Source: an uncultured Chloroflexia bacterium (GTDB taxonomy: Bacteria > Chloroflexota > Limnocylindria > Limnocylindrales > CSP1-4). Taken from it: 64,000 nt of DNA. Positions 2,581 to 63,733 of the stretch are shown here, in pieces. Position numbers and translations under genes: made by a program. The stretch is taken from assembly GCA_963778955.1 (NCBI GenBank), contig CAVZWI010000001.1, positions 147,980 to 211,979 on the forward strand, read 5' to 3'. The stretch's first letter is position 1, and the number at the start of each line of letters is the position of its first letter. The notes under the pieces are model-generated. The model was not told where the DNA came from and searched no databases. It saw only the letters and a program-made list of their open reading frames with translations.

Positions 2581-3446
2581 CTAGGTCCCAGCCGATGGCG
2601 GCCCGCCGGACCCCTGCGCGGCCGCCCGTGCCGCTGCCTCCGCGTAGCCGCGAACTCTCGGCTTGACCCCCGCGAGCGCTGCGTCGAGCCCGACGAGTGC
2701 CTTCTGCCTACCCGCCGCGAACGGATCCAGCAACATCAGCGTTCGCACCGACCCGGAAGGCGGCGGCTGACCATGGAGCCACGCAAGCAGCGCGTTGGGA
2801 GGGTCAGGGCACAGTGCCCGGAAGGTCGCGCTTCGGAGCCGGATGGCGTGGAGCACCTCAGCCGACCACAGGGCGATGATCGCGTGGCACTGCGACCTGA
2901 ACGGAGGATCTCCATCTGTCGCGCCAGGACCGGGGCCAGGTACTGGCACTTGGCGTTGAAACTGCCCGCAGCCTCCTGGATATCAGGGAAGAGGGTGCGG
3001 TTCTCGATGTGAAGCAAAGCCCGTGCGGAAGCCGACCATGCCAAGACGTCTGCTCGGCCGGCGAACTGGTAGTGCTGGTAGGGATGGTCGATGGCCACTC
3101 GATAGTCGTGCGGCGAGAGCCGACGCGCCTCGAACTCGCCCATCGCCGCATGCACCAGGTCGACGTCCCGGCGCCCGTGAGTGCGCCGCCGATCACCGAT
3201 CACGAGATCCAACGACAGGCCGAGGGCGGTCGTCGTTCGTGCGTAGACATCGAGCGAGACCCGCCGGCCCGCCTCGACGGCATCGACCGAGGCGGGCGAG
3301 AGGCGAGCACGGCGGGCCAACTCGCGCGTCGTCATCGCGCGGCGACGGCGCTCTTCGCGGACCGCCGAGCCGATGCTGGTGGCCAACCGGTTGGCGAGTG
3401 CTGTGGCTGCGGGCGTGGGCGGCGCGGTCGCGCGTCTAGGGGACAT
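2581..3446 (-). CDS. XRE-family helix-turn-helix protein with uncharacterised C-terminal domain (frame break near 2907-2910)
   Basis: N-terminal HTH (MTTRELARRARLSPASVDAVEAGRR). ORF 2736..3446 reads plausibly up to ...YLAPVLARQME. Protein-like sequence then continues in ORF 2581..2949 (PPFRSQCHAIIALWSAEVLHAIRL...). One missing nucleotide at GAGATCC joins the two. Confidence 0.6.
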
Positions 3447-3508
3447 CGTCCGCGTATCGAAGCAGAGGCCACTTATCTGCGACTTGTGCCACTTGGCCGC
3501 GAGTGGTT

Positions 3509-4672
3509 TCAGCCGCGGTCGCGCCGCCAGATCTCGACCAGGCGGTCAAGGGGGAGCCGGTGGGCGACGTGGCCGCTCTGGCCGCTCATCGTCTGGGCCG
3601 CTATGAGGGCATTCACGATGGCCTCCTCGGTGGACTCGATGGCCGCCCAGAAGAGCGGACTGATCCAGGTGTCATCAAGCACGCGCACTTCCCGAGTGAA
3701 GGGTCGGCCGGCCGTCTCGTCGGCTGCCACCAGACCGCGGTTGCCGGTGGCGAAGGCGATGAACAGGTCGCCGCTGGAATGCTCCCCTGCCCCGCCGGTC
3801 CGGGCCACGCCAAGGCCGGCGCGTTGGGCCAGTCGCTCACACTGGTGCGGCAGCAGCGGCGCATCGGTGGCAAGCACGACGATGATCGATCCCGAATCGG
3901 GGCCGGCGGAGCTGGCGGCGTCCTGGCGGTCGGAGTCGGCCGAGCCCGGGGCCACGTCATCGCGGTCGGAGGGCACTTCGTCGAAGCCGATCTCACGCCC
4001 GACCTGGACCCCGTCGATGGCCAGGCGTTCGCGGCGTCCGTAGTTGGCTTGCACCAGCGCCCCCACCGTGAAGCCGCCCTCAGCGTCAGGCAGGCGACGC
4101 GAAGCGGTGCCGATGCCACCCTTGAAGCGGTGGCAGATCATGCCGGTCCCGCCGCCCACGTTGCCCTCGGCCACCGCTCCCCCGTCGGCCGAGGCAAGCG
4201 CCGCATCCAGGTGCTCCGCGCGAACGTGCTGGCCGTCGATGTCATTGAGCCAGCCGTCCCACGTCTCGCCGACCACCGGCAGTGACCAGGCCGAGTCGGC
4301 ATGCGTCGCGCTCCGAGTCGCGGCAGCCACGATGGCGTCACGCACCACCCCCACCGAATGCGTGTTGGTGATGCCGATAGGCCCGGCCAGCAACCCCGCC
4401 TCGCGGATCCACTCCAGGCCGGTGAGTTCGCCGTTGCCGTTGAGCCGGTGCGCACCCGCATAGACGGACTCGGCGAAGGGATCACCCTCGGTGGGTACCA
4501 CCACGGTGAGACCGGTGCGGACCGGCCCCCGCCCGACCACGCGCGGACCAGCCGCGCCCGAGATGAGCGTGGTGTGCCCGACGCGGACGCCGGCCACATC
4601 GGTGATGGCGTTGAGTGGCCCGGGTGTCATCAGCCCGATGGTGATACCGAGATCACGAGCGCGTGTCGTCAT
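3509..4672 (-). CDS. P1/S58 family peptidase (DmpA-like L-aminopeptidase/D-esterase)
   Basis: 387-aa ORF. The N-terminus LGITIGLMTPGPLNAITDVAGVRVGHTT and the GxTN/GGTG-type segments are typical of DmpA/ornithine acetyltransferase-fold peptidases. Confidence 0.85.
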   Translation of the reverse strand: MTTRARDLGITIGLMTPGPLNAITDVAGVRVGHTTLISGAAGPRVVGRGPVRTGLTVVVPTEGDPFAESVYAGAHRLNGNGELTGLEWIREAGLLAGPIGITNTHSVGVVRDAIVAAATRSATHADSAWSLPVVGETWDGWLNDIDGQHVRAEHLDAALASADGGAVAEGNVGGGTGMICHRFKGGIGTASRRLPDAEGGFTVGALVQANYGRRERLAIDGVQVGREIGFDEVPSDRDDVAPGSADSDRQDAASSAGPDSGSIIVVLATDAPLLPHQCERLAQRAGLGVARTGGAGEHSSGDLFIAFATGNRGLVAADETAGRPFTREVRVLDDTWISPLFWAAIESTEEAIVNALIAAQTMSGQSGHVAHRLPLDRLVEIWRRDRG

Positions 4673-4688
4673 CGACGCTGGCGCACCG

Positions 4689-5954: not shown

Positions 5955-5994
5955 CGGGAATGGCCACAGGGTACGTGCGTACGCATGTGACTTT

Positions 5995-6303: not shown

Positions 6304-6349
6304 CGTTCTCCCCGTTCTGGTGAACGGCCGGCCGTTCAGCGTGATCGGC

Positions 6350-8749: not shown

Positions 8750-9811
8750 ATGTCCGAGCGACCCGTGCCCTTCAGCCTTCTTGACGCCGCCAGAGTGGTG
8801 GCTCGCGGAGGCACCTTCGAAAGCAAGCTGGCCGCTCTGTCAGCCCAGGCCCAGACCGTCACCGACGCGGATGCCGTCGGCATCCTGCTGCGGGACCCGG
8901 ATGCTGATGTGCTGCTCTCACTCGACGGAGAGTTGGCGCTGCCGATCAGTGCTGCCGGCTCACACATCACCGAGGCCGTGTCCGACCGTCAAACGGTACT
9001 GGCCGAGGGCGTGCCCAAGGCGCTCGCGGCGATCCTGCCCGGCGCACGCTCGTGCCTCTTGACGCCGCTACTCATCGAGGACGAGGACGGGACCTTCGTC
9101 GAGGGTCTGCTGGCGGTGGGATGGACCGCGCCGAAGACACCCATCGAGGACGCGCCGGACGCCATCCTCGCCATCGCCGACCTGGCCGCGGTCACCGTCC
9201 GCCAGGCGCGGTTGCGCAACTCAGCCTGGGAGTCCTCCGATCACGCCGACCGCCTCTCCCACACCGATCGGCTCACCGGTCTCGCCAATCGCGTCACCTT
9301 CGAGCGCATGCTGGAGTTGGAGATCGCCCGTGCCACGCGCCAGGGATCACCGCTGGCGGTGGCCGTGCTCGACGTGGACGGCCTGACGGATATCGGAGAG
9401 CGCAAGGGCGCGCGAGTGGCCGATGAGGTGCTGCGCCACGTAGCCAGCGCCATCGCCGACCGTGTCCGCCTGCTGGACACCGTGGCTCGCTTCGGCGAGG
9501 ACGAGTTCGTGGTAATCGCACCCGGTGATGCCGGCGGACTGGTGGCGCTGCGACTGCGCGACGCCATCGCCGACCTGCCACCCATCGGTGACACAGCGAT
9601 CTCCGTCAGCGCTGCCGTCGTGCACCATCCTGCCGACGGCGCCACCGGCGCGGAGTTGGTGGCGGCATCGGAGGCCGCCCTGGCCGAGGCCAAGGCGAAC
9701 GGCCCCGGGACGATCTTGGCGTGCATGAGGCGCACGCGTAGGTCAGCTGGCCGTTGCCCAAGTCGGCTGGCCGCTGCCCAGCGCAGGTGGACGTGCGGCC
9801 CAGTCAGATAG
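8750..9811 (+). CDS. GGDEF-domain protein with degenerate GEDEF signature and N-terminal sensory (GAF-like) region
   Basis: Contains DRLTGLANRVTFERML, RLLDTVARFGEDEFVVIAPG and EAKANGPG. ATG at 8750 (alternative GTG at 8723). Confidence 0.75.
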   Translation: MSERPVPFSLLDAARVVARGGTFESKLAALSAQAQTVTDADAVGILLRDPDADVLLSLDGELALPISAAGSHITEAVSDRQTVLAEGVPKALAAILPGARSCLLTPLLIEDEDGTFVEGLLAVGWTAPKTPIEDAPDAILAIADLAAVTVRQARLRNSAWESSDHADRLSHTDRLTGLANRVTFERMLELEIARATRQGSPLAVAVLDVDGLTDIGERKGARVADEVLRHVASAIADRVRLLDTVARFGEDEFVVIAPGDAGGLVALRLRDAIADLPPIGDTAISVSAAVVHHPADGATGAELVAASEAALAEAKANGPGTILACMRRTRRSAGRCPSRLAAAQRRWTCGPVR

Positions 9812-10175: not shown

Positions 10176-10851
10176 CTACGGGCCGGTCCGCTCCAGGAGG
10201 TCGTCCACGGTGCGACCGACCTCTGCCGCCACCGCATCCACCCCGAGGCTGCCATCGAGCAACATCCAGCGCTCGGGGTCGGCCGCGGCCATCTCGTGGT
10301 AGCCCGCGCGCACCCGCTCGTGGAAGGCCAGGTCGTGTCGAGCCGCATCCTCGAACCGCGTCAGCTCGTCGGCATGTCCCTGGTCCCGCCGGGCCAGGCC
10401 CACCTCCACCGGCACGTCCAGTACCAGCACCAGGTCCGGCTGCAGGCCGCGCGTCGATAGCTCGGCGATGACGCTGAGCATCCCGCGGTCCACGCCGCTG
10501 CCGTAGCCCTGGTAGGCCATGCTGGAGGTGGCGTAGCGGTCAAGCACCACGGTCTCGCCGCGGGCCAGGGCCGGCAGGATGACGTCCGCCACCAGCTGGG
10601 AGCGGGCGGCGTTGAACAGCAGCGCGTCGGCCACGGGTCCGCGTGGCACATCCGCGGGATCCAGCAGGATGTGACGGATCTGCTCGCCCAGCGGCGTGCC
10701 ACCAGGTTCGCGCGTCTCGGTCACCGTCATGCCGAGGGCCCGCAGGTGCTCGGCCAACAAGCGTGCTTGTACCGACTTGCCGGCACCATCGGGACCTTCG
10801 AGGACGATGAACAGGCCGGATCCCGGCCTCGCGCGCCCCCTCTAGCGCCAT
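10176..10851 (-). CDS. tmk: dTMP (thymidylate) kinase, frame break at 10819-10822
   Basis: P-loop [15 protein letters not shown] and DRY motifs. The main frame has no ATG/GTG/TTG upstream of the P-loop. ATG at 10851 ([11 protein letters not shown]) joins [15 protein letters not shown] if one nucleotide is removed at GGATCC. Confidence 0.85.
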
Positions 10852-12962: not shown

Positions 12963-14057
12963 CAGACGGCCGGCACCAGCGACGGTTCAGCGACCCGCAC
13001 CAGCGCCTCCTTGACCAGCAGGGAGACCGTGGCGATGGCCTGCATGCCGTGGTCCTCGAGTCGACGGTCGATCGGTGATTTCATAGGTCCGCACGCAGGC
13101 CATGACCCCGTGCTGGTGGGCGGGACTGGCGGAGCGGCCGACGGCTCCGCTGCGCTTGCCGATGACACCCAGTCCGTAGCGGATGAGGGTCGCGGTATCG
13201 TGCTCCGGCAGCGCCATCAGCCGCATGTAGTGCGGTTGCTGCTCCTTGGCCACGCCCAGCTGCAGCATCGCGGCCAGGCCCCGGCCGTCGCTCGACTCCT
13301 GGACATAGGCCTCCATGTCGGCAAAGCGAAGTAGCGGCGTGAGTGAGGTGCGTGGCACCGACGACCGACTTGGCAGGTGCTCCCAGTCGGGCAGGCGGTA
13401 ACTCTCCAGGCGCGCCACCGGGGCCGGGGTGACGCGTTTGTACAGCGCCGCCAGATCGACCGAATCGAGCGGCGTGGCCGGTCGGATGTGCTGGCTGCTC
13501 GCGTCGAGGCTGCGCAAGCTGGGGAAACGTCGGCGTGGTTCACGGAAGAGGATGGTCTCCTCGCCGTAGCGGGCGAAACCAGCCTGCATGAAGAGTTCCA
13601 CGTTGCCGCCTCGGTCTGCGCAGGCGACATGGAAGCGGACGGCCCCGCGGCGCGAGCCGTCACGCAGGAGGTGCTGGACCATCCGGTATCGGATGTCTCC
13701 GGCCGCGCCCTGGTCCACCGCGTCGAGCTCGACGATGGTCCACTCGTCACGATTGGCGTCACGTTCGACGCGCGCCAGGCCCGCCAAGCGACCATCCTCC
13801 TCGTAGACGTACATCTGGTCGTTGGGCCGGAACGCACCCAGCGGCATGCGGAAAAGGCTGAAGACCGAGACGTGGCTGGCCGTCACCGGCAGCCCCAGCG
13901 AACGCATGGAGCGCACTGGCTGGTCGGGAGGCGCAGCGCCACCGTCCCGGCCCATCTCGATGCTGGGGTGAGCCAGGCGCGACAACTCCCCGACCGCAGC
14001 CAGGTCTGTCAGCCGGGCCGCCCTGACGTGGCCCGAGCGAGGCAGCGCCGGCATCAA
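12962..14057 (-). CDS. GNAT-family acetyltransferase-like protein (probable frame break 13070-13081)
   Basis: GNAT core: [18 protein letters not shown]...[24 protein letters not shown]...[12 protein letters not shown]. After ...VRTYE a better C-terminus ([32 protein letters not shown]) lies in the frame of ORF 12962..13168. Confidence 0.7.
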
Positions 14058-15616: not shown

Positions 15617-15907
15617 GACATGCCTCGATCGAAGTTGGGTTCTGGTGGCGCTTGCCAGTGGCTCGGCGGCGGGGTCGTCGCCCGCACGGAGCCGGTTGGT
15701 TGCCACGACGGTGAGGTCGATTATCGCACGCGCTCCTGATGACCCCGCAGTGGGGACTCGATAGCCCACGACTCGGCGCAAGCTTGGCGCGGCGCGGGCT
15801 TGATGGCGGATGGTCCATTGGAGGGGGGTGTGGTACTGATGGCCCCGGTGCTGGGGGGCACCACAGTAGGGAGGGCCACCACGCACGGACCTGTTAGCGT
15901 GCCCGAT

Positions 15908-16717: not shown

Positions 16718-16722
16718 ACCCC

Positions 16723-19752: not shown

Positions 19753-20724
19753 TGCGCGTCCTCGTCACCGGTGGCGCCGGCTACATCGGCGCGGTCACCG
19801 TGGAGCAGCTCATCCTGGCCGGGCATGAGGTCGTGGTCCTGGACACGCTCGTGACCGGACATCGTGAATTTGTCGCGCCCGGCGCCGAGATGGCGGTGCA
19901 CTCGGTGTCGGACAAGGCGGCCGTGGTGGCCCTGCTCAAGCACCACCACATCGATGCCGTCCTGCACTGCGCCGCCCGGTCGCTGGTGGGCCAGTCCATG
20001 CAGGATCCGGGCCTCTACTTCAGCGAGAACGTGGTCGGGGGCATCGCCCTGCTGGACGCCCTTCGTGAGTCGGGTGTCGACCGCATCGTCTTCAGCTGCA
20101 CCGCAGCGGTCTACGGCGAGCCCGAGCGTGTGCCCATCCGCGAATCCGCGCCGACGCGTCCGGTGAACCCCTACGGCGCCTCCAAGCTGGCCTTCGAGAG
20201 TGCCATGGGCTGGTATTCCGCCTACGGCCTGCGCTCCGTATCGTTGCGCTACTTCAACGTGGCCGGAGCCAGCGAGCATTACGGCGAGCGGCATCATCCG
20301 GAGACGCACCTCATCCCCAACATCCTGGGCGCCGCACGGGGCGGTCCTGAGCTGACGGTCTTCGGGGCTGACTATCCCACCGCTGACGGCACGGCCATCC
20401 GCGACTACATCCACGTGCTCGACCTGGCCGAGGCACATATCGCGGCCCTGGAGCTCACCGGCCAGATGGAGGCGGGCCAGGAGATCTGCAATCTCGGCTC
20501 CGGCAGCGGCTTCAGCGTCAAGCAGGTGCTCGACGCCGCCAGCGCCATCGTCGGCGCCGAGATACCGCACCACTACGGGCCACGCCGCGCGGGTCGATCC
20601 GCCCGCGCTCATCGCATCCTACGACCGGGCGGCCGAACTGTTGGGCTGGGGACCGCAACGTGGCTCACTACGCGAGATGATCGGCTCGGCGTGGCGCCTG
20701 CTGGAGACCGGCCGGGCCGGCTAG
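19752..20724 (+). CDS. galE: UDP-glucose 4-epimerase (one extra nt at 20595)
   Basis: Motifs VTGGAGYIG and YGASK. After ...HHYGPRRAG the expected DPPALIASYDRAAELLGWGPQRGSLREMIGSAWRLLE followed by TAG (20722-20724) is in the +1 frame. The 591-aa ORF 19752..21527 is a read-through artefact. Confidence 0.9.
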
Positions 20725-21519: not shown

Positions 21520-22921
21520 ATGCCTGAATCGAGCCCTCCCCGAAGCGCTGGCCGCAGAGGTCGAGCGACTTGGCCCCGCCGACATCATGGTCGGCATCCC
21601 CAGCTTCAAGAATGCCGCGACCATCGGCCATGTCACGCGCGCCGCGCAGGCCGGCCTGGTGCAGTACTTCCCCGACAGCAAGCCCGTCCTGGTCAATGCC
21701 GACGCCGGTTCGCCCGACGGCACCGGACGGGTCGTGGTCGAGACCCAGCCGCCCGACTACGTGGAGCGGATCCTGCTGGTACGACCACGCAACCGGCTGC
21801 AGCGACTCTCTTTGACCTACCCGGAGGTCGACGGTGTGGGCGGCAAGGGTGCGGCCTTGCGTACCATCTTCCAGATCGCCGAGGCACTCAAGGTGGAAGC
21901 GCTGGTGGTGGTCGACTCCGACCTGCGCTCCATCGTGCCCGAATGGATCGAGCTGCTGGCGGGGCCCATCCTGAAGGGTGGCTTCGACTACGTGACGCCG
22001 CTCTACCAGCGCTACAAGTACGACGGCACCATCACCAACACCGTCACCTATCCCTTCACGCGCGCCTTGTACGGACTCCGCATCCGCCAGCCCATCGGCG
22101 GCGACTTCGGCGTCAGCGGCGACCTCGTCACGCACTACCTTGACCAGGCCGACTGGACGCCGGACATCTCCAAATTCGGCGTCGACATCTGGATGACGAC
22201 CAAGGCCATCACCGGCGGCTTCGCGGTCAGCCAGACACGCCTGGGCGCCAAGATCCACGATCCCAAGGACCCCGGCGCCGACCTGGGCCCGATGTTCAGC
22301 CAGGTCGTCTCGACCATGCTGCGCCTGACCGTGCAGCATGCCCAGAGCTGGCTCGAGGTGCGCGGCTCCCACGCCGTGCCGACCTACGGCTTCGAGCGCT
22401 ACGCCGATCCGCCACCGCTGGAGGTCGATGTGACCCGCCTGCTGGGCGCCTTCGCCAGGGGACGTGTGACGGTCGGCGAGGCGTGGCAGACGCTGGTGTC
22501 ACCGTCGCGCATGGAGGCCTTGGACCTGCTGGCCACCGAGGCCGCGGAGGTGCTGGATGAGATCACCCGTGCCGACACGCCCACCTCCGCGGACGATGCC
22601 GAGTTCCACTTCAGCGACGACCTCTGGGCCCGCATCATCTACGACCTTGCGCTGGCGGCGCGTGGCGACAGCATGGACATGGATCACATGATCGCGGCGC
22701 TGGTACCCATCTACTTCGCGCGTGTCGCCAGTCTCGTCATCGAGGCCCGCGACATGACCACGCAGCAGGCCGAATTGCTGGTCGAGCGTCAGGCGCGAGC
22801 GTACGAGCAGGCCAAACCGGGCTTCGTGGAGCGCTGGCGGGCCGGTGAGGGCCTGAGCCCGCGCAAGGCCAAACGGCCAGCCAAGTCGCCCAGGTCGGCC
22901 AGCAAGGGGAAGAAGGCATGA
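21520..22921 (+). CDS. GT-A fold glycosyltransferase, mannosylglycerate/glucosylglycerate synthase-like (5' end uncertain)
   Basis: Contains VGIPSFKNAATIG, GKGAALRTIF, VVVDSDL (DxD) and IRQPIGGDFGVS. The frame stays open and protein-like upstream of ATG 21587 (ALPEALAAEVERLGPADI). ATG 21520 joins it if one nucleotide is removed at GAATC 21526-21530. Confidence 0.75.
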
Positions 22922-34634: not shown

Positions 34635-35983
34635 CTACGGCGTAAGGCTCCAGAGCTCGCGACCGTGCTCGCCATCGCTGGCGCTGAAGAGGAGTACCCC
34701 GCCGAGCTTCACCAGCTCCCGCGGGAACGACGAGCCCGACGGATCGATGTCCGCAGCCTCGACCGTTCCCGCGGTGGTCCCATCGCTCATCCAGAGCTCG
34801 TGGTCGAGCAGCCTCCAGTCCGTGCCATCGTCCTCGCCCGGACCGGCGGCGAACCAGAGCCGGCCGTCCAGCCCAACGCACCTCAGCGTGACCGCGGAGG
34901 TGAACCAGTCGGCCGTGCCGCCCTTGACGAGTTCCGTTCCGGCAGCGGTCGCGTCACTGACCCAGAGCTCGTCGCGAGAGGGCAGTGACCGCGAGGAACG
35001 TGTCATCCACAATCGGCCGAGGTGCTTCTGCATGCCGGGCAACGGACGGACGCGAGGCACGACCGCGCCGGTGCCCGACTTGGTGCCGCCGCTCCCGAAG
35101 AGCCGGAGCCGGATGCTGTCGGTCCAGCCGTTGAAATAGATGTCGTCACCAAGCACGGCGAACTCCCCGGTGGCGAAGATGCCGCTCACGGGCCTGGTGC
35201 CGGCTCGGCTGCCGTCGGACCACCACAGACGAGGCGGCTCCAGGCAGCCGTCGCCACCACCGCACCAGTCCGGCCCATGGTGCGCGCCGCCGACGAAGAA
35301 GATGCGCCCGCGGAACGGCGTCAAACCGCTGCTGTTCAGCCACCGGGGAGAGATGCGCTTGGTGCCGGTGCTCGTGGCATCGGTCACCCAGAGTGCGCCA
35401 CCAGCGTTGAAATACAAGCGTGATCGCATGACGGCCGACCCGACCAGGTCGATGTCCGGGATGGCACGCACCAGCTGCGTGGACTTGCCCGTTCCGTCCG
35501 TGCGCCACAGGTCCTCGTAGCGGCGACTGAAGTAGGCCCGGCTGCCGAGCGCGGCGATCTGGAGATCGCCGGAGCCCTTGCTGCCCGGCGCCAGGTCCCG
35601 CACCAGGCGGGTGCCCTTGCGCGTGCCGTCGCTGATCCACAGTTCGCGGCCGTGGCTGCCATCGTCGGCACTGAAGTACAGCCGATCCCGACACGCGTCA
35701 GGGAGCGCGGCGCAGAGCCACCAGAGCCGGGGCGGATGTCGCGGACCAGGCGGGTGCCAACGGGAGTGCCGTCAGTGGCCCACAGCTCTCGGCCGTTGGT
35801 GCCATCGGTGGCGCTGAAGAACACCGTCTTGCCGACGACGGTGAGCGACTCCGGCCCGGATCCCGACCAAGGATGGATGTCAGCGACGAGCGTGGCAGAC
35901 GGAGCTGCGGCCACGCCGACTGGAGGGATGAGCAGGACCGCGGCGATGACGATCACGACGGCCCAGGTGACGACGGCGCGCAT
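34635..35983 (-). CDS. ELWxxDGT-repeat exported protein (frame break at 35684-35689)
   Basis: Signal peptide MRAVVTWAVVIVIAAVLLIPPVGVAAA. Repeats: RELWATDGTPVGT, (RELWISDGTRKGT across the break), DLWRTDGTGKST, ELWVSDATAAGT and ELWMSDGTTAGT. ORFs 35384..36214 and 34635..35603 join if one G is added at GGGATCGG. Confidence 0.8.
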
Positions 35984-36114
35984 GGCCAATGTCTCCCGAT
36001 GGGTCCCGCGTTGACCCGGGATAGGGCTGCCATCGCGCAGGACCCAGCAGTCTGACGTTACGCCCACCACCTTCGGCATCAAGGTGCCGAAGGTCACCTC
36101 GATGGACAGATGGT

Positions 36115-37019
36115 TCAGTCGCCCTCGGAGCCGTCGAGTCGAGCGAGGATCTGGAGTGAAAGGCGAGCGGCCTCGACCGGGTCCGAGCCGAGCACCTGGC
36201 GGTAGTAGTCCCACGATTCGAACTCCACGGTCAGGTAGCCCTCGTAGCCGATGTCGTCGAGCGCTGCGAAGAAGTCCGCCCAGGGTACGACCCCCTCCCC
36301 CAGCAGCGGGAAGACGAACGTGTCGCCGAACATGCCCGGTCGGCCGACCGCGTCCTTGAGGTGGACGTGGCGGATGCGGGAGCCGAGTTGGCGGATGACC
36401 CAGGGGATGTCATTGCCGACGAGCACGCCGTGCGATGGGTCGAGATTGATACCGAGCGCCGGTGAGTCGTAGTGGCGCAGCAGCTCCAGCGTGGTGTAGT
36501 AGTCGTGGACGAGGTGGCCGAAGACGCCTTCGACGGCCAACTGCACGCCGGCGTCCTGCGCCACCGGCACGAGTCGGTCGAAGGCGTGCACGCACCATGC
36601 CCCACGCCGCTCCCTCGCGGAGGTCCCTGCCGAGCCCAGGTGCCAGATGGGTCCCACGGGGCCGGGCCGGTGAAGAGATTGACCGGCGCGACGATCGACT
36701 GCCCGCTCATGTCCAGCTCGGCCACGGCTCGGATCGCGGCGATGGCGAGGTCGATGCGCTGGTCGCGCACAGCGTCGTCGGGATGCACGAAGTCGAGCTG
36801 CACGATCCATTCACTCACCGCCAACCCGGCAGCCTGCGTGTCGGCCAGCAGCGCGCGGCGATCGGCATCGGTCCGATGGTCGGGGTCGATGCGGGCGAAC
36901 GGCCAGGAGACCGCAGCATAGCCCAGGCCGGCGAGCGAATCGGCCACCTCCGCGGCAGGTCGATCGACGAAGTCGAGTGCCGCGAGGAACCCATGTAAGC
37001 GCCCGTTTCGCGGGCTCAC
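36115..37019 (-). CDS. sugar phosphate isomerase/epimerase (xylose isomerase-like TIM barrel), disrupted
   Basis: The N-terminal half is in ORF 36231..37187 (from GTG 37019, a GTGA overlap with the upstream gene). The C-terminal half is in ORF 36115..36810 (AFDRLVPVAQDAGVQLAVEG...HVHLKD...GYLTVEFE). The junction around 36590-36650 probably needs two corrections. Confidence 0.7.
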
Positions 37020-39073: not shown

Positions 39074-41655
39074 ATGGTGGAGCCCGTGCTTCTGGAACGG
39101 GACGCAGAACTGGATGTCCTGGAAGGGCTCGTCGCCGGCCTCGATCCGAGCGGCGGCAAGGTCGTGCTCATCCGCGGCGAGGCCGGCATCGGCAAGAGTG
39201 CCCTCGTCGCCCGCTTCGCCGAGCTTCGATCCCGCGAGGCGCACGTTCTCATCGGTGCCTGTGACGACCTGTTCATCCCGCAGCCGCTGGGGCCGTTCTG
39301 GGACATCGCTCGCGCGGAAGCGCGGCTGAGAGGACCACTCGAGATCGGTGATCGCCCACATTTGCTCGAGGCCGTGCTGAGCCTCCTGTCACATCCCACG
39401 CGTCCAACCATCCTGGTCATCGAGGACACACACTGGGCCGACGAGGCCACGCTCGACGCCATCCGATACATCGGCCGGACGATCGCCCGGACCAACGGCA
39501 TCCTGCTCCTCACGTACCGCGACGGTGACGTCGACGACGATCACCCACTGCGCGGGGTGATCGGTGACATCCCGGCCGGGGATGTCGTCCGCATCCAGCT
39601 CCACGGTCTCTCGATGGACGCGGTGACGTCGATGGTGGCTGACTCGGGCCTGGATCCGGCCGCGGTCCTGGCTGCCACGCGTGGCAATCCCTTCCTGGTG
39701 ACCGAGATGGCCTCTGGGCCAAGCGACGGTGTCGCTTCCTCACTGGAGGAATCGGTGATGGCGAGGGTGCACAAGCTCTCGGTCGGGGCGCGACAGACGC
39801 TCGATGCCCTCGCCGTCATCCCGGAGGCCATACCGCAGCGCGACGCGTTGTCGCTGGCCGGGGTGGATGAGAGCCGCTTGCGCGAGTGCGAGCAGCGTGG
39901 GCTGCTGGAGTCACGTGCCGGGATGGTGGCGTTCCGCCACGAGCTCATCCGCCAGACGATCGAGTCGGCGATGACCGCCGGCGAGCAGGTGGCCCGGCAC
40001 CGTGCGGTGCTCGATCAACTCTCAGACGAGACCCACTCGAGCCTGCTCATCCACTGCGCCGTCGAGGTCGATGACATCGACCGTCTCCTCGAGCTCGCGC
40101 CACGGTCCGCTCGCTATGCTGCGGCCACTGGTAGTCACATCCAGGCAGTCGAGGACTTCAGAGAGGTAGGACCGTACCTCGACCGCTTCGGCCCGGAGGC
40201 CCTGGGGCCGTTGCTCGACGACTGGGCACGCGAGGAGGACCTCGTGGACGACGCTGCCGAGGCCATCCGCCTCAATGCGCTGGCCCGAGATCGACTACCG
40301 AGCGCTGGGAGACCGCAGCTCGGAGTCGCGCGCCCTCACCAAGGCGGCGCAGTACTACGAGAACCACGGGCAACGCGACCAGGCAGTGGAACTCGCCCGT
40401 GAAGCCCTTGATGTGCTCGGCGCAGACCCTGATGGCTCGGACCTGGCCCGAGCCCTCGAGGCCAACGTGTATCTGCAGATGATGGCCGGCAAGGTCTCTG
40501 CGGTAACCGAGCTGGTCCAGCGGACGATCGATGCCGGTGGAACGAACCTCGACGAAAAGGTACCTCATCCGGATCCTTTGCCACCGTGGGACCATGGCCA
40601 ATGTCACCAGCTACCCTGAGGGACGAGCCAGTCTCGACGAGGCTAGAGCGCGCGCGGAGGCTGCCGGGGAATGGTTCGAGGAGTGTCGCGCGTCGGTCAA
40701 TCACGCCTGGGCAGCCGCGGAGTTCCGGGATTTCCCAGTCGCGTCCGACTACGCGCAGCGCGCCATCGCTTCAGCCGCACGACACGCACTCTTGGGTATC
40801 GAGGCCTACGCCAAGGCGATACATGCGAGGGTCCTGGACTTCGAAGGCAGGTGGGACGACGCCACCGACCTGGCGCGAGATCTATCCGAGGCTGGCGCAA
40901 TGGCCCAGATGGTCGTCCTCCCCATCCTCGGGGTGATCGAGGCAAGAAGAGGCCGAACGTCCGCCCCGACGGTGTTGGCACAGGCCTGGCAGATGGCCTC
41001 TGCCACCCATGAATTCCAGCGGCTGGCCCCAGCGGCCTCGGCGAGCGCCGAACACGCCTGGATCTTGGGGAGTGGCGGTATCACCGTCGCTGAGCTCACG
41101 GGCGTGATGAACGCCGGCCTTGACCAGGGTTTCGAGTGGTCGCCTGGGTCGATCGCCTTCTGGCTCTGGGAACTCGGGGAGTTGTCAGTGCCCCCTGAGG
41201 GCATCGCTGAACCATATCGGCTGACGATCGAGGGCCGGACCGACGAAGCAGCGGCCATCTGGGAAGCACGGGGGCTCCCCTACGAGCGTGCGCTGGCGCT
41301 CATGCACGGTAGTCTGGCCGATCAGCTAGAGGCGCTCGAGGCATTCGAGACGCTCGGCGCGTCCGCGGTGGCGGCCAGGTTCAGGAAGAGGTTGCGGGAG
41401 CAGGGCGTAGCCGTTCCGCGCGGCAAGGGTCGCGAGACGAGGCGACACATCGCCGGGCTGACCGCACGACAGGCAGAGGTCCTGCGACTCCTGGATGAGG
41501 GTCTCTCCAACACCGAGATCGCCGACCGGCTCTTCGTCTCGCTTCGCACGGTCGAGAGCCATGTCTCCGCGGTGCTCGACAAGCTGGATGTCTCCACTCG
41601 GGAGGAAGCCGTGTCCCGGGCGCGCACCGAGGGGCTCCTGGGGGCTGCCAGCTAG
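39074..41655 (+). CDS. LAL-type (large ATP-binding LuxR family) transcriptional regulator, read in three frames
   Basis: Walker A IRGEAGIGKSAL. A TPR-like middle region. C-terminal LuxR HTH LTARQAEVLRLLDEGLSNTEIADRLFVSLRTVESHV. ORFs 39002..40402, 40275..40619 and 40531..41655 form one protein with +1 corrections near 40280-40292 and 40555-40558. Confidence 0.8.
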
Positions 41656-42939: not shown

Positions 42940-43846
42940 ATGAGCGACGACCAAATCCACAGCTCCGCTCAGCGGGACCGCCGCTCGCTCGCCCTCGTCT
43001 TCGGTATCGGCGTGGTCGTCCTGCTCGTGGAGTTGGTCGGCGGATTGGCGGCCGACAGCCTGGCACTCCTGGCCGACGCCGGCCATGTGTTCACGGACGT
43101 GGCGGGAATCGCCCTCGCCCTCGGAGCCATCTGGCTGGCGGGACGACCAGCCTCCCATGCGCGCACCTTCGGCTGGTACCGGGCCGAGATCCTGGCCGCC
43201 GCCATCAACGCCGTCATCCTGCTGGCGATCGCGGCCTTCATCCTGTGGCAGGCATGGCAACGCTGGAATGAGCCGCCCGAGGTCGCCGGCGGTCTCATGC
43301 TCGCGGTGGCGGTCGTGGGCGGTGTGGCCAATCTCATCGCCATGCTGCTCCTGCGTGGCCCACAGGGCCGCAGCCTCAACATGCGGGGCGCCTACCTTGA
43401 GGTCCTCGGCGACCTGCTGGGCTCCGTGGCGGTCGTGGTGGCCGCGATCGTCATCACCCTCACCGGATTCACGCAGGCTGACGCCATCGCCTCGGCGGTC
43501 ATCGGGCTGATCGATCCTGCCGCGCACCTGGGGGCTCCTGCGCGACGCGGTCGATGTCCTGCTGGAAGCCACCCCCAAGGACGTGGATGTCGAAGAGGTG
43601 CGTCGCCACATCCTCGAGGCACCTGGCGTGGAGGACGTTCATGACCTCCACGCCTGGACGATCACCAGCGGCATGAACATCGTCTCCGCGCACGTCGTGC
43701 TGGGCCCTGATGGCGACCCCGGTGGCCTGCTCGACCATCTCAGCGATTGCCTATCGGGGGACTTCGACATCGACCACTCCACCTTCCAGTTGGAGACCCC
43801 CGAACACGTGCTCTGGGAGGGTCGAGCCGACCGCATACGGCTATGA
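42940..43846 (+). CDS. cation diffusion facilitator (CzcD/ZitB-type) metal exporter, one extra nt at 43509-43516
   Basis: LLADAGHVFTDVAG, FGWYRAEIL and the C-terminal domain DVHDLHAWTITSG...HSTFQLE. ORFs 42940..43644 and 43583..43846 join as ...VIGLI-ILPRTWGLLRDAVDVLLEATP. Confidence 0.85.
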
Positions 43847-43869: not shown

Positions 43870-44614
43870 TCACATGGCCGTCATGGAGCCTCGGGTGCGG
43901 GACCGAAGACCATCGATCTCCGATGCCCCGGTGTTGCCGCCGCTCGAATGGTCGACGTCGAAGCGCAGGACCTGGGCGGTGATCGCGAGCAGAACCTCCT
44001 CCGAGGCGGGGAAAGGACCATGGGTCGTCGCGTCGGCCGTGACCGTGAACGTCTGCGTGATGGCACTTCCGTCGCTCATCGAACGCGTCCCGAAGACGAC
44101 CGAACCGATGTCCACCGGACGGCCCAGATCGATCGTGATGTAGGCCTCGTCGCCATCCCCCAGGGATGACCACTCGGTGGTGGGGTCTCCGTCGAATGCG
44201 TTGGAGGCCGCGAAGGCTGCCGAGAACTCCGAGCTCACCTCGACGATCCGCGCGCCGAGGGCGAGGTCGACCGGGGTGTCGCCGGATGGCAGGGGTGTCG
44301 TGAAGGAGAGCAGCTCGCTGCGGTAGAGACGACCGTCGATGCCACTGCCCTGGAGCCGGAAGAGATACGTGGCGGCCGGCTCGAGCCCACCAGGACACGT
44401 GGTGGTGCGGTGCGCGGCACCGCCCATTGGTGGTGGCCAGTCGGCCGAACGTCTCGTCCGGCCCGAAGACGACAGCGCAGGCGGCATCGATGATGGTGGT
44501 CACGTTGATGGTCACCACGGTCCCGGATGGGTCCAGATCGACGGCCAATGGGGACGCCAGGATGGCATCGAGATCTTCGGACCGCGTCCATGTCCTCGAC
44601 TGCCCCTGGGCCAA
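43870..44614 (-). CDS. discoidin (F5/8 type C) domain protein, disrupted, N-terminus unresolved
   Basis: ARIVEVSSEFSAAFAASNAFDGDPTTEWSSLGDGDEAYITIDLGRPVDIG. The upstream FN3/PhoD-N-like part (GLEPAATYLFRLQG) and an earlier segment lie in other frames (ORFs 43841..44614 and 44235..44732). Confidence 0.55.
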
Positions 44615-50219: not shown

Positions 50220-50746
50220 GGGGCACCCTGCTGTGTTGGCCGGACGAGCATGCGTCCGTCACACGGCCACGACATCGGTGCCAGCGCCCGATCCCCATGC
50301 CCGCTAGCGGCACAACGCGATCTCCCGCTGGCTGGAATGCGGACAGGGGCCCGCAGGTGGCATCCTCGAGCCATGCGCGTCCTGATCGTCGATGACAGTC
50401 CCGGTTTCCTCGACGCCGCCAGTCAGCTACTCCGACTGGAGGGTGTGGCGGTCGTCGGTGTCGCTTCGAGCGGGGAGGAAGCGCTCCACCTGGCCAGCGA
50501 ACTCCGTCCGGACGTCACGCTCATCGACATCGACCTCGGCGGCGATGACGGCATCGCCGTGGCACGCCGCCTAGCCGGGTCGGAGGGTCATCCCGCCGGA
50601 GACATCGTCCTCATCTCCACCCATGCCGAGGACGAGTTCGCGGAGCTCATCGAGGCCAGCCCTGCGATCGGGTTCATCCCCAAGCTGGCCCTCACCGCGG
50701 AGGCCATCGAGCGACTCGCTGGTCGGAAACCTCCCGAGGGGCGGTC
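50220..50746 (+). repeat. inverted repeat copy A (527 bp)
   Basis: Reverse complement of 54048-54574 with 2 mismatches by my base-by-base comparison (G/C at about 50243; T/C in AAGCTGGCC versus AAGCCGGCC). Confidence 0.95.
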
Positions 50747-50783: not shown

Positions 50784-52660
50784 CGTCCCCTCGCCCGGTA
50801 CGCTGGTGATCTCAAGGTGTCCTCCGAGTGACTCCACGCGGTCGCGGAGTCCGGTGAGACCCGAACCGAGCGTCGGGTCTGCTCCGCCGATGCCATCGTC
50901 TCGAACCGCCACGTGCAGCGACCCATCCCGGTCCTCGAGTGTGACGTGCATCTCCCGGGCCGAGGCGTGCTTGGCGGCGTTGGTCATCGCCTCGGCGACG
51001 ACATAGTAGCCGGCCGCCTGGACGGGCTCGATCAACGGCACTTCCGTCCGGATGGCGAGCTGGACGGGGAGCGGAGAGCGCCGGGCCAGCGTGCGAATAG
51101 CGGCAGGCAGGCCACCGCGCGCCAGGGCGGCTGGGTAGATCCGCGCGAGATCTCGCGCAGCTCGTCGATCACCCTGGTGACATCCCCAGCGAGCTGCTCG
51201 ATCTGGGCTCGGAGCTCCGTCTGCTCAGGTGGGACGACCGCTGCGAGCGTACGGAGTCGGAGCCCCAGACTGACGAGGAGCTGCTGGGCCCCATCATGAA
51301 GATTGCGCTCGATCCGCCGCCTTGCATCGTCGGATGCCGCGACGATACGCAGGCGTGAGGCGGTGACCTCCGCACGCGCGTTCGCATTGGCGATCGCTGT
51401 CCCGACCAGCTCCGTGAACGCCGTCATCCACTCGTCGGCGTCATGCGCGAGCGGTTCCGTGCGTCGCGCGGCCTCCAGCACGCCCCACCGCTCACCCGCG
51501 ACGATGACCGGGCAGGCGATCGAGGACGTCATGCCCATCGCGTTTGATGGCCCTGCCGCGGGCCCGGTGAGCCTCGCGAGATCGTCGATGCGTGTCGTCA
51601 CCATCGATTGCCATGCTCGGTCCGCGATGCTGTCGCCAAGAGGTGTCAACGCGGCCACGTCTACCGGACCGTGACCTTGTTCCCACGCGGCGATCGAGAC
51701 GAAGCGTCCGTCCATCTCGTGCCGCCACAGGAAGGCCAGTTCGCTCGGCAGATGCTGCGCGAGCTCGCGAGCGACAGCTGCGAGGACCTCATCCGGCGCC
51801 CCGCCTTGGGCGACCAACGTGGCCACGCGCCGCAGTGCGGACTGCTGGTCGACGAGCCGGTGCTGCACCGCCTGGCTGTCCTCAAGCGATGCCGCGAGGC
51901 TGTTGAACGACCGCTCGAGCGTCCCGATCTCGGCCGTGCCCGTACCTGGCATGCGAACGGAAAGGTCGCCGGCAGCGAGACGGCCGGCCATGCGGGCAGC
52001 CTTGGTGATGGGTCGAACCATCATCCGGCCGAGATAGACGACGAATAGGGCGATCAGACCCACCGAGGCAGCGAAACCGACCGTGGCTGCTGCTGTCGCG
52101 CTGCGTGCGAGGCCACCCGCGGCCTCCTGACGAGAGATGTACGTCTCGCGCTCCGCCTCTGTGAACCCTTCGAGAAGCGATCGGAGCTCATCGATGCGCT
52201 GCTTCCCTGTCTCTGTCATCGTCACGCTCGCGGCGCTCGGGTCATTGCTCCGGACTGCTGCGATGAGCGGCAGGCCGTACTGCTCGATGTACGCGCTGCC
52301 GGCCCCGATGATCGCCTGGACACGCGCGGCCTGGGTGGGATCGTCGATGGAATCGGCGAGGGAGGACACCCTGCTCGGAAATGCTTGCCGTCCGGCATCC
52401 CACGGCTCGAGAAAGCGCTCGTCGTGCGTGATGACGAAGCCACGCAGGCCGGTCTCCATGTCGATCGCGAGTCGCTGCGCCTGGTCGGCTGATCGGAGGC
52501 GCTCCAGTGAGACCGTGACTTGATCGTCAGCCAGGTGCAGCTCTCTGACGGCAATGTTGAGGCTCAAGAAGCTGCCGCCGATCAGCAGCACGAGGATGGC
52601 GCCGGCCACGGTCATCCGCCCGGTCAGTCCGCTCAGCCGTGCGTCCATCGACCACCTCAC
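50754..52660 (-). CDS. sensor histidine kinase: CHASE3-HAMP-GAF-HisKA_3-HATPase (one nt missing at 51138-51141)
   Basis: The N-terminal TM helix and CHASE3-like region, then a GAF region. H-box RRIERNLHDGAQQ. After ELREISRG the expected IYPAALARGGLPAAIRTLARR...EVPLIEPVQAAGYYVVAEAMTNAAKH...GSGLTGLRDRVESLGG is in the frame of ORF 50754..51041. Confidence 0.85.
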
Positions 52661-54040: not shown

Positions 54041-54421
54041 TTACCCGGACCGCCCCTCGGGAGGTTTCCGACCAGCGAGTCGCTCGATGGCCTCCGCGGT
54101 GAGGGCCGGCTTGGGGATGAACCCGATCGCAGGGCTGGCCTCGATGAGCTCCGCGAACTCGTCCTCGGCATGGGTGGAGATGAGGACGATGTCTCCGGCG
54201 GGATGACCCTCCGACCCGGCTAGGCGGCGTGCCACGGCGATGCCGTCATCGCCGCCGAGGTCGATGTCGATGAGCGTGACGTCCGGACGGAGTTCGCTGG
54301 CCAGGTGGAGCGCTTCCTCCCCGCTCGAAGCGACACCGACGACCGCCACACCCTCCAGTCGGAGTAGCTGACTGGCGGCGTCGAGGAAACCGGGACTGTC
54401 ATCGACGATCAGGACGCGCAT
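54041..54421 (-). CDS. receiver-only response regulator (copy B)
   Basis: Identical to copy A except for one residue (L to P). The C-terminal tail differs after PPEGRS, where the repeat ends. It lies directly upstream of the NarL-type regulator on the same strand. Confidence 0.8.
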   Translation of the reverse strand: MRVLIVDDSPGFLDAASQLLRLEGVAVVGVASSGEEALHLASELRPDVTLIDIDLGGDDGIAVARRLAGSEGHPAGDIVLISTHAEDEFAELIEASPAIGFIPKPALTAEAIERLAGRKPPEGRSG

Positions 54422-54574
54422 GGCTCGAGGATGCCACCTGCGGGCCCCTGTCCGCATTCCAGCCAGCGGGAGATCGCGTTGTGCCGCTAGCGGGCATGGG
54501 GATCGGGCGCTGGCACCGATGTCGTGGCCGTGTGACGGACGCATGCTCGTCGGGCCAACACAGCAGGGTGCCCC
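54048..54574 (-). repeat. inverted repeat copy B (527 bp)
   Basis: See copy A. It includes 153 bp upstream of the receiver ATG. Confidence 0.95.
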
Positions 54575-58969: not shown

Positions 58970-58995
58970 CGACAGGAAGTGAGGGGAGGCAGCAC

Positions 58996-61536: not shown

Positions 61537-61689
61537 GCTCTACGAGCGGCGAGTCTGCGGCCAGGGCGGGAGACTCGAGACTGGCAGGAGGCGGAGCGCA
61601 AGAACCAGCAGGAGGAGACCGCGGCCAAGCCCGCATCTGACCCCAGCGAAGACGATCCATGTCCTGATCAGGAGGCGGTACCGAACGAC

Positions 61690-62572
61690 ATGACCGAAGG
61701 AGACAGAATGCCGATCCGATCCGATGACTTCCGCGTCCACCCCGGACTCACGGTCGACCTTGAAACGTGGCCCACAAAAGTAGAACCCGCCTACGCGTCG
61801 AAGAAGCGGTATCGGAAGCTCCTGCGGTCCCACGTCGAGGCGCTCAGTTCGCTGCAGCACCTGCACTACGCGTCCAACCGCTACGCGCTCTTGCTGATCT
61901 TCCAGGGTATGGACGCCGCCGGCAAGGACGGCGCCATCCGGCATGTCATGTCGGGCGTGAACCCGCAGGGCTGCGAGGTCTCGAGCTTCAAGCAGCCCAC
62001 CCCTGACGAGCTCGAGCACGACTTCCTCTGGCGCACTGAGCGTCGGCTGCCCGAACGGGGGCGGATTCGGCATATTCAATCGTTCCTACTATGAGGACGT
62101 GCTGGTCGTTCGCGTACACCCGGAGCTGCTCGAAGGTCAACGGCTTCCCGCCGGGTTGATCGACCCGAAGACCATCTGGCAGGACCGTTATCGGTCCATC
62201 TTGGACCTCGAGGCACACCTCCACCGGAACGGCACCCGCATCATCAAGGTGTTCCTGCACCTCTCGAAGGACGAGCAGCGCCAGCGTTTCCTGGCACGCA
62301 TCGATGAGCCCGACAAGAACTGGAAGTTCAGCCTGGCGGACGCCCGCGAGCGGAAGTACTGGAAGCAGTACAGCGAGGCGTACGAGGAGTGCCTGAGCGC
62401 GACCAATACGCGTCACGCACCCTGGTACGTGGTCCCGGCCGATGACAAGAAGAACGCGCGGCTCATCGTCTCCCAGATCGTCCTTGACGCGTTCAGTGAG
62501 CTCAACATGGCGTATCCCAAGGTCACCCCGCGCCGACGGAAGGAACTAGAGGCCATCGGCAAGGCGCTCTGA
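61690..62572 (+). CDS. ppk2: polyphosphate kinase 2 (one extra nt at 62064-62068)
   Basis: [11 protein letters not shown]. ...RLPERGRI then [21 protein letters not shown] continues in the +1 frame (ORF 62099..62572). Later motifs are [11 protein letters not shown] and [10 protein letters not shown]. Confidence 0.88.
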
Positions 62573-62730
62573 TCCGTTCACCGTCGGAGGCTCGCGAGTC
62601 GACGCCCTCCTTGCGTGGGTCGAACCCGAAGACATCGACGCGGCCTGCGGTCGGTCGCACACCCTCACCGTCGTCCAGTTGCACGCTGCGGTCGGCGAGC
62701 ACCAGCGCGGCCAGGGACATCAGCGGCGTC

Positions 62731-63733
62731 TCACCCGCCTCCTGTCACCAGCACGGCGGTACCTTCCAGGGTTCCGCTTGACAGGAGGCTGATGGCACTC
62801 CCAGCGTCATCGAGGGGGAAGGTCTGGGTGGATGTCCGCAGGGGGATGTCCGCGGCCAGTTCGAGGAACTCCCGGGCGTCCGCCCGGGTGAAGTTGGCGA
62901 CGCTGCGGATGGCCCGCTCGGGCCACAGGATGTCGTAGGAGAATGCCGGGATCCGGTCGAGGTGGATGGCGTTGATCGCCAATGTCGCGCCGGGGGCGAG
63001 GCTTCGAAGGGCCGTCACCACCACGTCGCCACTCGGCGCGAACGTCACCGCCGCATCCAGCGCCGGCGCAGATTCATCGTACGAGCCGACGCTCGCCGCG
63101 CCCATGGCCGCAGCCTGCTCCTGGCCGTGGCGCGAGCGTGTGCGGACGTGGATCTCGCAACCCCGATAGTCAGCCACCTGGAACGCCAGTAGCGCCGAGG
63201 CACCGAAGCCGTAGAGCCCCAGACGACCCCCGGGCTGGATGCCGCTGACCTTGAGGGAGCGATAGCCGATGACACCGCCACACAGCAAGGGTGCCGCGGC
63301 CAAGTCGCTGAAGCGTTCGGGCAGGCGCAAGGCGAAGTCCGCGCGGACCACGAGCCGGGTGGCGTAGCCGCCATCGCGATCCCAGCCGGTGAAGCGGGCC
63401 TCCAGACAGAGGTTCTCGCGTCCGCTCGTGCAGAACCGGCAACGCCCGCAGGTCGAAGCCAGCCACGCCACCCCCGCCCGGTCGCCCTCAGCCCAGTCGT
63501 TGACGTCAGGGCCGACGGCCAAGACTCGACCCACGGCCTGGTGGCCAGGGATGATGGGCATGCGACGTGCGGCGAGATCGCCCTCGATCGATCTGGAGGT
63601 CGGTGCGGCACACCGCGCACGCTGCGACATCGAGCAGGAGTTCGCCGCGCCCCGGCACGGGGTCAGGCAACTCGAGGCTCTGCAGGGGGAACGTCTCGGC
63701 CGGAGCCGGGTCCGAGAGTCGGAGAGCGCGCAT
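62731..63733 (-). CDS. zinc-dependent MDR alcohol dehydrogenase (one extra nt at 63586-63593)
   Basis: MRALRL...VAACAVCRTDLQI (ORF 63506..63787) joins IEGDLAARRMPIIPGHQAVGRV...CGRCRFCTSG...LYGFGASA (ORF 62731..63630). GGAGG lies upstream of ATG 63733. Confidence 0.85.

Follow-up and report, generated by a model that had tools for sequence, protein, structure and literature searches.

Genes in the 64 kb stretch of DNA analysed here (the window) are interrupted by one-base frame breaks, and the question is whether they are real pseudogenes or products of the assembly. The window comes from the genome under study (G000), an uncultured Limnocylindrales CSP1-4 MAG assembled in 4 contigs with 84% completeness. 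Comparison genomes were labelled G001, G004, G005, G009, G010, and G011. Judged from sequence comparison, the broken window genes are almost certainly no real pseudogenes but reflect errors in the consensus of a metagenome assembled from long reads alone.

Frame breaks in the window

The window contained approximately 18-20 one-base frame breaks. A preliminary description had claimed at least 15, and these were recovered in place or close by, while the breaks at 9716 and 36111, and possibly those at 36018 and 38060, were additional. Between 38 and 64 kb there was no synteny with close relatives, and breaks were located from motif continuity, split Pfam hits and HMM only; elsewhere they were compared with up to 8 relatives by alignment. 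About half of the breaks were at GATC and GANTC words, and 7 of them lay firmly on GATC or a corrupted GATC.

The galE gene (20593-20599, plus strand) had an extra base giving TCGATC, a class 1 signature, where 5 relatives had TGATC or CGATC. The ELWxxDGT gene (35684-35689, minus strand) lacked one C, reading GATCCC for the GATCCCC of G010, with an HMM switch at 35680/35681 (shift -1). The CDF transporter (43509-43516, plus strand) had an extra base, also of class 1 (GATCGATC; CAT-GATC in G001 and G009). The CHASE3-HAMP-GAF histidine kinase (51138-51141, minus strand) lacked one G before GATC (GGGATC to GGATC); three-frame reading showed continuity from REISRG into IYPAAL, the HMM shift was -1, and in Pfam HisKA_3 ended at about 51139 with HATPase_c in the other frame. 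The zinc ADH (63586-63593, minus strand) carried a class 1 extra base, GATCA to GATCGA (GATCGATC), with continuity from CRTDLQI into IEGDL, an HMM switch at 63587/63588, and ADH_N in the main frame without its first 22 profile positions. The earlier placement on GATC stood for these five genes.

Two further breaks had been read as lying on GAATC or GATTC. Their positions were right and the motif was not, both being corrupted GATC that carries no evidence for GANTC. The glycosyltransferase (21526-21530, plus strand) had an extra A at codon 3, giving GAATC where 4 relatives had GATC. In PPK2 (62064-62068, plus strand), an extra T gave GATTC. This site is regarded as a corrupted GATC since removal of one T restored the reading frame and regained a 13-residue protein stretch; PPK2 profile positions 2-91 and 85-223 were split over two frames.

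Placement on GATC was less exact in two other genes. The XRE-like/peptidase-like gene (2901-2910, minus strand) lacked one base at the GATC at 2907 or up to 6 nt before it. Against G004, G005 and G011, blastn showed a 1-nt gap at 2901-2907 and the HMM coding start was at 2904; as identity was only about 70%, the break was placed to within 6 nt. In tmk (10816-10849, minus strand), three-frame reading put one extra base between the start codon and a 15-residue stretch. This 33-nt interval contained both GGATCC (10818-10823) and a G5 run, and the relatives were too divergent for placement on GATC as previously proposed. The GNAT break, earlier put near the GATC at 13070, was in fact an extra T at 13077-13082 (minus strand) that turned GATTC, present in 8 relatives, into GATTTC, a true GANTC site with an HMM switch at 13080/13081.

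Other breaks lay near GATC or away from it. One base was missing at 9716 (9712-9718, plus strand), at a gene end after GATCTT (GATCTTGG), where 4 relatives had GATCTT(T/C)GG or an equivalent. The 3' end of GlcD (34587-34597, plus strand) had one base less than G001, the sole comparable relative, 6 nt after GATC and two codons before the stop, and this difference may be real variation. At 36111 (minus strand), one base was missing relative to G010, which has GAGTC, and the HMM switch was at 36118/36119. The LAL regulator had AAA_16 and GerE in separate frames (Pfam) and contained two breaks on the plus strand, namely one extra base at 40277-40292, in a CCC run or at the GATC at 40289 (HMM switch 40286, shift +1, in agreement with three-frame reading), and an extra A in an A run at 40554-40558 (AAA to AAAA at 40557), placed by three-frame reading and the HMM. 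The isomerase-like gene (36587-36648, minus strand) had two separate extra bases, at 36587 and 36648, with HMM switches at 36592 and 36660 and an alignment with G010 only. The discoidin-like gene (44413-44441, minus strand) changed frame with no GATC within reach (HMM switch 44426/44427), and its fragments had no Pfam match. As described before, the isomerase pair, the LAL A run and the discoidin break were off both motifs.

Genome-wide distribution of indels

G010 showed 86% DNA identity to G000 over 745 kb aligned. Isolated 1-nt indels in this alignment numbered 305, against 36 of 3 nt. The enrichment check proposed in the preliminary description was run genome-wide and was positive: 106 of the 305 1-nt indels (35%) touched GATC versus 6.1% under the null (p ~2e-50), with no enrichment for CATG, GTAC, ACGT, AGCT, CCGG, GGCC, GCGC, or CGCG. 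Homopolymer runs of at least 3 accounted for 16% of events versus 12% under the null.

Each indel was counted as an error of the genome whose third-codon-position G+C phase did not carry through it, in gap-free alignment blocks. This attributed 172 events (71 confident) to G000 and 81 (24 confident) to G010. Among confident G000 errors, 49% fell on GATC, and the share rose to 61% when a distance of up to 2 nt was allowed. The direction of the G000 indels was 133 extra versus 39 missing, and fixed signatures recurred (TGATC to TCGATC; GATC to GAATC or GATTC; GATCCCC to GATCCC). A call based on the longest spanning ORF and GC3 in fixed windows was dropped as too noisy. A site-centred GC3 phase test had a 10% background and weak contrast, and HMM segmentation was used instead.

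The relative-free HMM detected 533 frameshift-like phase switches in G000 (164 per Mb). G010 and three genomes of family f2 gave a baseline of 62-73 per Mb; the f2 genomes were at the method baseline (62 per Mb) with too few errors for a GATC-linkage comparison. A GATC lay within 5 nt of 28% of the 533 switches versus 9% expected (p 2e-37), rising to 35% when GAWTC was counted in. Chance placement on GATC is excluded by the 106 of 305 indels genome-wide versus 6.1% together with this HMM result. The per-site error rate was 1.00% for GATC and 0.99% for GANTC versus 0.17% for CATG and 0.23% for CANTG. GANTC was enriched 4- to 10-fold, with position 13079 as one clear true-GANTC case. Overall, 1-nt indels occurred about once every 4 kb, which amounts to several hundred in G000.

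Essential genes, nonsense codons and related assemblies

NCBIfam profiles showed rpoB, tuf, rpsE, a clpB/C-like gene and ppdK to be broken in G000 and intact in G010, as was rpoC, which was recognised by eye. A first count of 112 nonsense candidates was mostly antisense shadow ORFs. After filtering, 43 remained among 135,609 compared codons, 41,441 of them differing; for none of the 27 well-aligned candidates did local codon phase support the frame in which it lay. The pattern of genome decay, with nonsense mutations mixed among frameshifts, later decay and sparing of essential genes, was thus absent.

The relatives nearest to G000, namely G001, G005, and G010, are MFD-LR MAGs from Microflora Danica, for which the published pipeline uses Flye nano-hq and one Medaka 1.8.0 round without short-read polishing (PMC12313526). 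G001 and G010 each bore their own GATC-linked indels with the signature seen in G000. The G000 assembly is probably of Nanopore origin as well. Relatives in hundreds of contigs, which are probably short-read assemblies, were uninterrupted at every checked site.

Methylase genes

The 'Dam-type' GATC methylation suggested earlier was not borne out by a search for Dam- and CcrM-like methyltransferases. Profile search of G000, an 84% complete genome in which absence is not proven, gave no match to the D12-class methylase (PF02086), which 4 of 31 genus genomes possess. The candidate methylase genes of G000 were two PF01555 (N6/N4) and one PF00145 (C5). These three genes lie at C1:1388732-1389532, C2:462943-463791 (after correction) and C1:1412477-1413670. 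Against the NCBIfam CcrM equivalog, the PF01555 proteins scored 48.4 and 51.2 bits, far below the cut-off of 830, and they qualify only as members of the PF01555 superfamily. One of them had motif I before motif IV (permuted order), and this methylase occurred in 29 of 30 sampled genus genomes, at a fixed distance from a C5 methylase. The G010 assembly had no PF02086, PF01555 or PF00145 gene, an absence that is uninformative because the whole methylase region is missing there.

We consider it possible, at somewhat under an even chance, that GATC and GANTC are modified genome-wide in this lineage without a Dam-type enzyme, the two PF01555 methylases being the likely enzymes. If true, the error pattern would be an accidental methylome readout of an uncultured Limnocylindrales (Chloroflexota), and it would point to an orphan adenine methylase that belongs to the core gene set of a lineage outside Proteobacteria and may have a regulatory role.

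Origin of the frame breaks

The frame breaks are very probably consensus errors of a Nanopore-only MAG and not mutations, with modified GATC and GANTC palindromes as their most likely cause. Base modification on these palindromes would distort the signal from the pore, leading basecaller and polisher to add or drop one base in a stereotyped way, so that TGATC becomes TCGATC, GATC becomes GAATC or GATTC, or a flanking G or C is lost. At modest coverage, the systematic miscall would outvote the true base at about 1% of sites. GATC accounts for roughly half of the 1-nt indels and GANTC for some more; the other half would be ordinary low-coverage indel errors.

The breaks are not regarded as biological because essential genes were broken in G000 yet intact in G010, convincing nonsense codons were lacking and the signatures were fixed. 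Along with the 305 versus 36 indels, this strongly supports the earlier view that most of the pseudogenes are artefacts concentrated on GATC. Real frameshifts, either from massive recent decay or from a GATC indel hotspot (nicking by a GATC endonuclease and error-prone repair), would accord with a site-specific enzyme in their motif specificity; however, they would require loss of rpoB, rpoC, tuf, and rpsE and a decay in which not one of 41,441 differing codons was a credible nonsense codon. Downstream of the breaks, the frames retained an identity of about 86%. Sister MAGs from other samples had different breaks with a common signature, and the many-contig relatives were uninterrupted at the same sites. 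Real frameshifts are therefore highly improbable. Programmed ribosomal frameshifting or other recoding would explain why translation goes on in a neighbouring frame, which is the sole point for it. It is put at a negligible probability, as the sites ran into the hundreds and included +1 as well as -1 shifts, the orthologues compared (up to 8 relatives) were single-frame at the matching codons, and a slippery motif common to the sites was not found, in keeping with the lack of slippery heptamers noted before.

A closer alternative accepts the artefacts and ascribes their link to GATC and GANTC to sequence context alone, with which the basecaller, polisher or assembler would have difficulty whether or not the DNA is modified; nothing about the methylome would then follow. 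The G010 genome would fit this, showing the TGATC to TCGATC signature with no PF02086, PF01555 or PF00145 gene found, but the missing block deprives that absence of weight. No more than about 1% of sites were affected, and the errors were insertions, whereas published methylation-linked errors are mainly substitutions, usually C-to-T and G-to-A. Against it, two unrelated palindromes of the adenine-methylase type were affected and eight other palindromes were spared. In addition, R10.4-type isolate assemblies are reported to be near-finished without polishing (PMC9262707), which would be hard to square with an intrinsic 1% failure at every GATC. A pure context error is accordingly considered unlikely, and base modification is the cause we infer for the Nanopore consensus errors.

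Consequences for annotation

The breaks represent an assembly quality problem rather than biology and serve mainly as a warning for annotation. In G000 and its sister MAGs, several hundred false frameshifts distort gene calls, pseudogene counts and completeness (84%), and likewise any 'novel fusion' or 'split gene' that is read from them. Because the signatures are fixed, a motif-aware correction could build on them (TCGATC back to TGATC; GAATC or GATTC back to GATC). The pattern is also an indirect hint, of modest interest, that the lineage modifies both motifs by means other than a Dam-type enzyme.

Comparison with known systems

E. coli Dam recognises GATC and Caulobacter CcrM recognises GANTC, and both sites were error-prone here. 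Dam is a D12 enzyme (PF02086), a class with no match in G000, while CcrM is a beta-class enzyme (PF01555), and the G000 PF01555 pair scored only 48-51 bits. GATC and GANTC are not mentioned in the Nanomotif preprint. Long-read MAGs with homopolymer indels share with G000 the many 1-nt frameshifts, lower completeness and split essential genes, but differ in cause, as homopolymers explained little here.

Consensus errors at methylation motifs have been described in Nanopore assemblies for Dcm CCWGG (Wick et al. 2019, PMC6591954) and, with R10.4.1 data, for GATC and other motifs (Genome Res 2024, PMC11610603). The G000 errors resemble them in surviving consensus at a short palindromic methylase-type motif, in leaving control motifs unaffected and, as far as the sister MAGs are concerned, in occurring in Nanopore-only, Medaka-polished assemblies. 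They differ from the Dcm CCWGG and GATC errors in being 1-nt indels, strongly biased towards insertion and with fixed signatures, rather than mainly substitutions, and in the apparent involvement of two motifs (GATC and GANTC), on which the modification is putative.

Frame breaks in the window

Single-nucleotide indels in the studied genome (G000) were stereotyped and fell into three classes. In class 1, T/GATC became TC/GATC (reverse complement, GATC/A to GATCG/A); in class 2, GATC became GAATC or GATTC; and in class 3 a flanking C or G was dropped (GATCCCC to GATCCC, GGGATC to GGATC). The genome assembly, estimated to be 84% complete, totals 3.25 Mb (68% G+C) over 4 contigs. The window holds 467 GATC sites and the whole genome 19,948 (6.1 per kb), so that a random position has only about a 3-6% chance of touching one. 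About 86% DNA identity was shared with the closest relatives, G001 and G010, with synteny limited to window positions 1 to about 38,100.

Breaks in the alignable part of the window were located by multiple alignment against as many as eight relatives. The galE break lay at 20595 (window GGTCGATCC vs GG-TGATCC or GG-CGATCC in relatives), the glycosyltransferase break at 21527 (window CTGAATCGAG vs CTG-ATCGAG in four relatives), a 1-nt loss at 35686 (GATCCC vs GATCCCC in G010), and the CDF transporter break at 43512 (window GATCGATCC vs CAT-GATCC in G001 and the relative G009). The GAATC at 21527 is thus GATC into which an A was inserted. One base was missing at 2901-2907, where about 70% identity allowed placement only to within 6 nt, and the tmk break fell within a 33-nt interval containing both GGATCC and a G5 run. 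Two extra bases, at 36587 and 36648, were not on a motif. The GNAT break was placed by the alignment at 13077-13082 (GATTTC vs GATTC in 8/8 relatives) and not at GATC 13070, and breaks at 9716 (GATCTT-GG vs GATCTTYGG) and 36111 were added to the list of the preliminary description. The GlcD difference, two codons short of the stop, may be genuine. At 15713 the window also has one A more than G001 and G010, in apparently non-coding sequence just upstream of a GATTATCGCAC block kept across the genus.

No syntenic counterpart of positions 38100-64000 was found in the five closest relatives. This part, with a slightly lower G+C (0.664-0.676 vs about 0.69), looks like a variable island with regulators, the CDF transporter, PPK2 and ADH. 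Its breaks were judged by conserved motifs, Pfam and a codon-position Markov HMM, which placed phase switches no more than a few bases from most of the junctions. Continuity was broken at CAGATCGATCGAG in ADH (CRTDLQI/IEGDL) and at GCGGATC, where GGGATC was expected, in the histidine kinase (REISRG/IYPAAL); in the latter, HisKA_3 ended at about 51139 with HATPase_c in a different frame. In PPK2, continuity after GRI was broken at GGATTCGG, and the match to Pfam PPK2 was split over two frames (profile positions 2-91 and 85-223); the GATTC is likewise a corrupted GATC. The LAL regulator changed frame at 40286 (CCC run or GATC, ambiguous) and again at an A run (40557), and the discoidin-like gene at 44427 with no GATC nearby. 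Inverted repeats of 527 bp (50220-50746 and 54048-54574) flank the histidine kinase gene and differ at exactly two sites, 50242 (G/C) and 50686 (T/C), neither at GATC.

Genome-wide distribution of indels

The proposal that reading frames break at GATC was borne out by alignments, motifs and the HMM, and it was extended genome-wide. Alignment of 1.19 Mb of G010 to G000 gave 745 kb in 123 blocks, in which isolated indels (flanked on both sides by 30 or more gap-free columns) were of 1 nt in 305 cases, 2 nt in 17 and 3 nt in 36; of the 305, G000 had an extra base in 203 and lacked one in 102. Selection on coding sequence yields the opposite pattern to this excess of 1-nt over 3-nt indels. With alignment ambiguity allowed, 106 of the 305 1-nt indels touched GATC in either genome vs 6.1% of simulated indels (p = 2e-50), while CATG, GTAC, ACGT, AGCT, CCGG, GGCC, GCGC and CGCG were not enriched. 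When the genome losing third-codon-position G+C phase across the indel was taken as the broken one, 172 events were assigned to G000 (71 confident), 81 to G010 (24 confident) and 52 to neither. Of the confident G000 events, 49% were on GATC and 61% within 2 nt of it. Among all 172 events assigned to G000, insertions outnumbered losses (133 vs 39).

A relative-free test, by Viterbi segmentation of the whole G000 genome, gave 533 same-strand phase switches with both frames open for more than 30 nt (164 per Mb; 364 of +1 and 169 of -1). With the same caller the rate was 73 per Mb in G010 and, in three family f2 genomes, 62 per Mb; this is roughly its false-positive floor. Switches within 5 nt of GATC amounted to 28% vs 9% expected (p = 2e-37), rising to 35% with GAWTC added; CATG, GTAC and CCGG were flat. 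After subtraction of the floor, the GATC-derived share of real breaks was about half, in agreement with the alignment test.

GANTC as a probable second motif

Many GAWTC sites of G000 aligned to GATC or diverged GATC in G010; these arise from the error itself and do not represent a second motif. With G010 taken as proxy for the true sequence, GANTC was touched by 9-11% of G000 errors vs 1.6% under the null, including GACTC and GAGTC, neither of which A/T duplication can yield. Among switches with no GATC within 15 nt, GASTC was enriched 2.8-fold (p = 8e-5, relative-free), and CANTG, GTNAC, CTNAG and TCNGA were flat. The error rate per site was 1.00% for GATC and 0.99% for GANTC vs 0.17-0.23% for CATG/CANTG. 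On this enrichment and per-site rate, the earlier suggestion of GANTC is probably right, although the two sites cited for it do not support it.

Origin of the frame breaks

Genes broken in G000 and intact in G010 (NCBIfam) included rpoB, tuf, rpsE, a clpB/C-like chaperone and ppdK; rpoC, recognised by eye, was also broken. Genome decay would leave nonsense mutations and relaxed constraint along with frameshifts. Across 135,609 codons compared in the confident frames of G010, 41,441 differed and only 43 were stops in G000 only; none of the 27 well-aligned candidates (0/27) was in a frame backed by local codon phase, these being shadow ORFs or upstream of start codons. Conservation downstream of each break was equal to that upstream. 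Decay was rejected because frameshifts numbered in the hundreds while credible nonsense mutations were absent and purifying selection was intact; programmed frameshifting was excluded because the orthologues are uninterrupted. An assembly artefact, as first read from the sequence, is strongly supported by the broken essential genes and the lack of credible nonsense codons.

Granted an artefact, a link to base modification is likely, and the putative modification could be 6mA, 4mC or 5mC. The description of the methylation as Dam-type was unsupported, since D12-class Dam (PF02086) was not found in G000 and no specificity could be assigned to its candidate methylases. One candidate, a PF01555 N6/N4 methylase fused to Mrr_cat (C2:462943-463791, L131), was fragmented in the assembly, with an in-frame TGA and its N-terminal part in a separate ORF, probably through the same errors. 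Another PF01555 methylase (C1:1388732-1389532, L132, at 1.389 Mb) was permuted, motif I (DPFAGVGGT) preceding motif IV (DPPY). It was present in 29/30 sampled genomes of the genus, about 25 kb from a C5 methylase in G000 and about 22-30 kb in at least seven genomes, and is a candidate core orphan methylase. This PF00145 C5 methylase (C1:1412477-1413670) adjoins a nuclease with AspBHI N-terminal and Mrr_cat domains (L134:3174-4058), an odd neighbour because AspBHI-type nucleases cleave 5mC-modified DNA. All three candidates were missing from G010, but so was the whole region from its assembly.

Comparison with long-read assemblies

G010, G001 and the relative G005 are 'MFD...bin' MAGs, assigned in their labels to uncultured Chloroflexia or Candidatus Limnocylindrales. 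For the Microflora Danica long-read catalogue, only Nanopore reads were assembled, by Flye (nano-hq) followed by a single round of Medaka 1.8.0, and its authors report Nanopore-associated errors in low-coverage MAGs (PMC12313526). From contiguity, genus and error profile, we infer that G000 came from the same Nanopore-only catalogue as G010. Private indels in the sister MAGs differed from those of G000, and several were at GATC (AAGATC; GGATGCC to GGATCC): G001 carried AAGATC at window 20482, and G010 carried 1-nt indels at 31530, 31223 and 32513 and several TCGATC/GATCGA cases. Long-read MAGs of the genus therefore share the artefact. It belongs to a known, ordinary type of assembly error, here with a signature that is unusually clean, and its practical value lies in caution and in a basis for motif-aware correction. 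Consensus errors at methylation motifs are well documented and are mostly substitutions (PMC6591954, PMC11610603), and an insertion dominance like that of G000 is unusual for Nanopore consensus errors.
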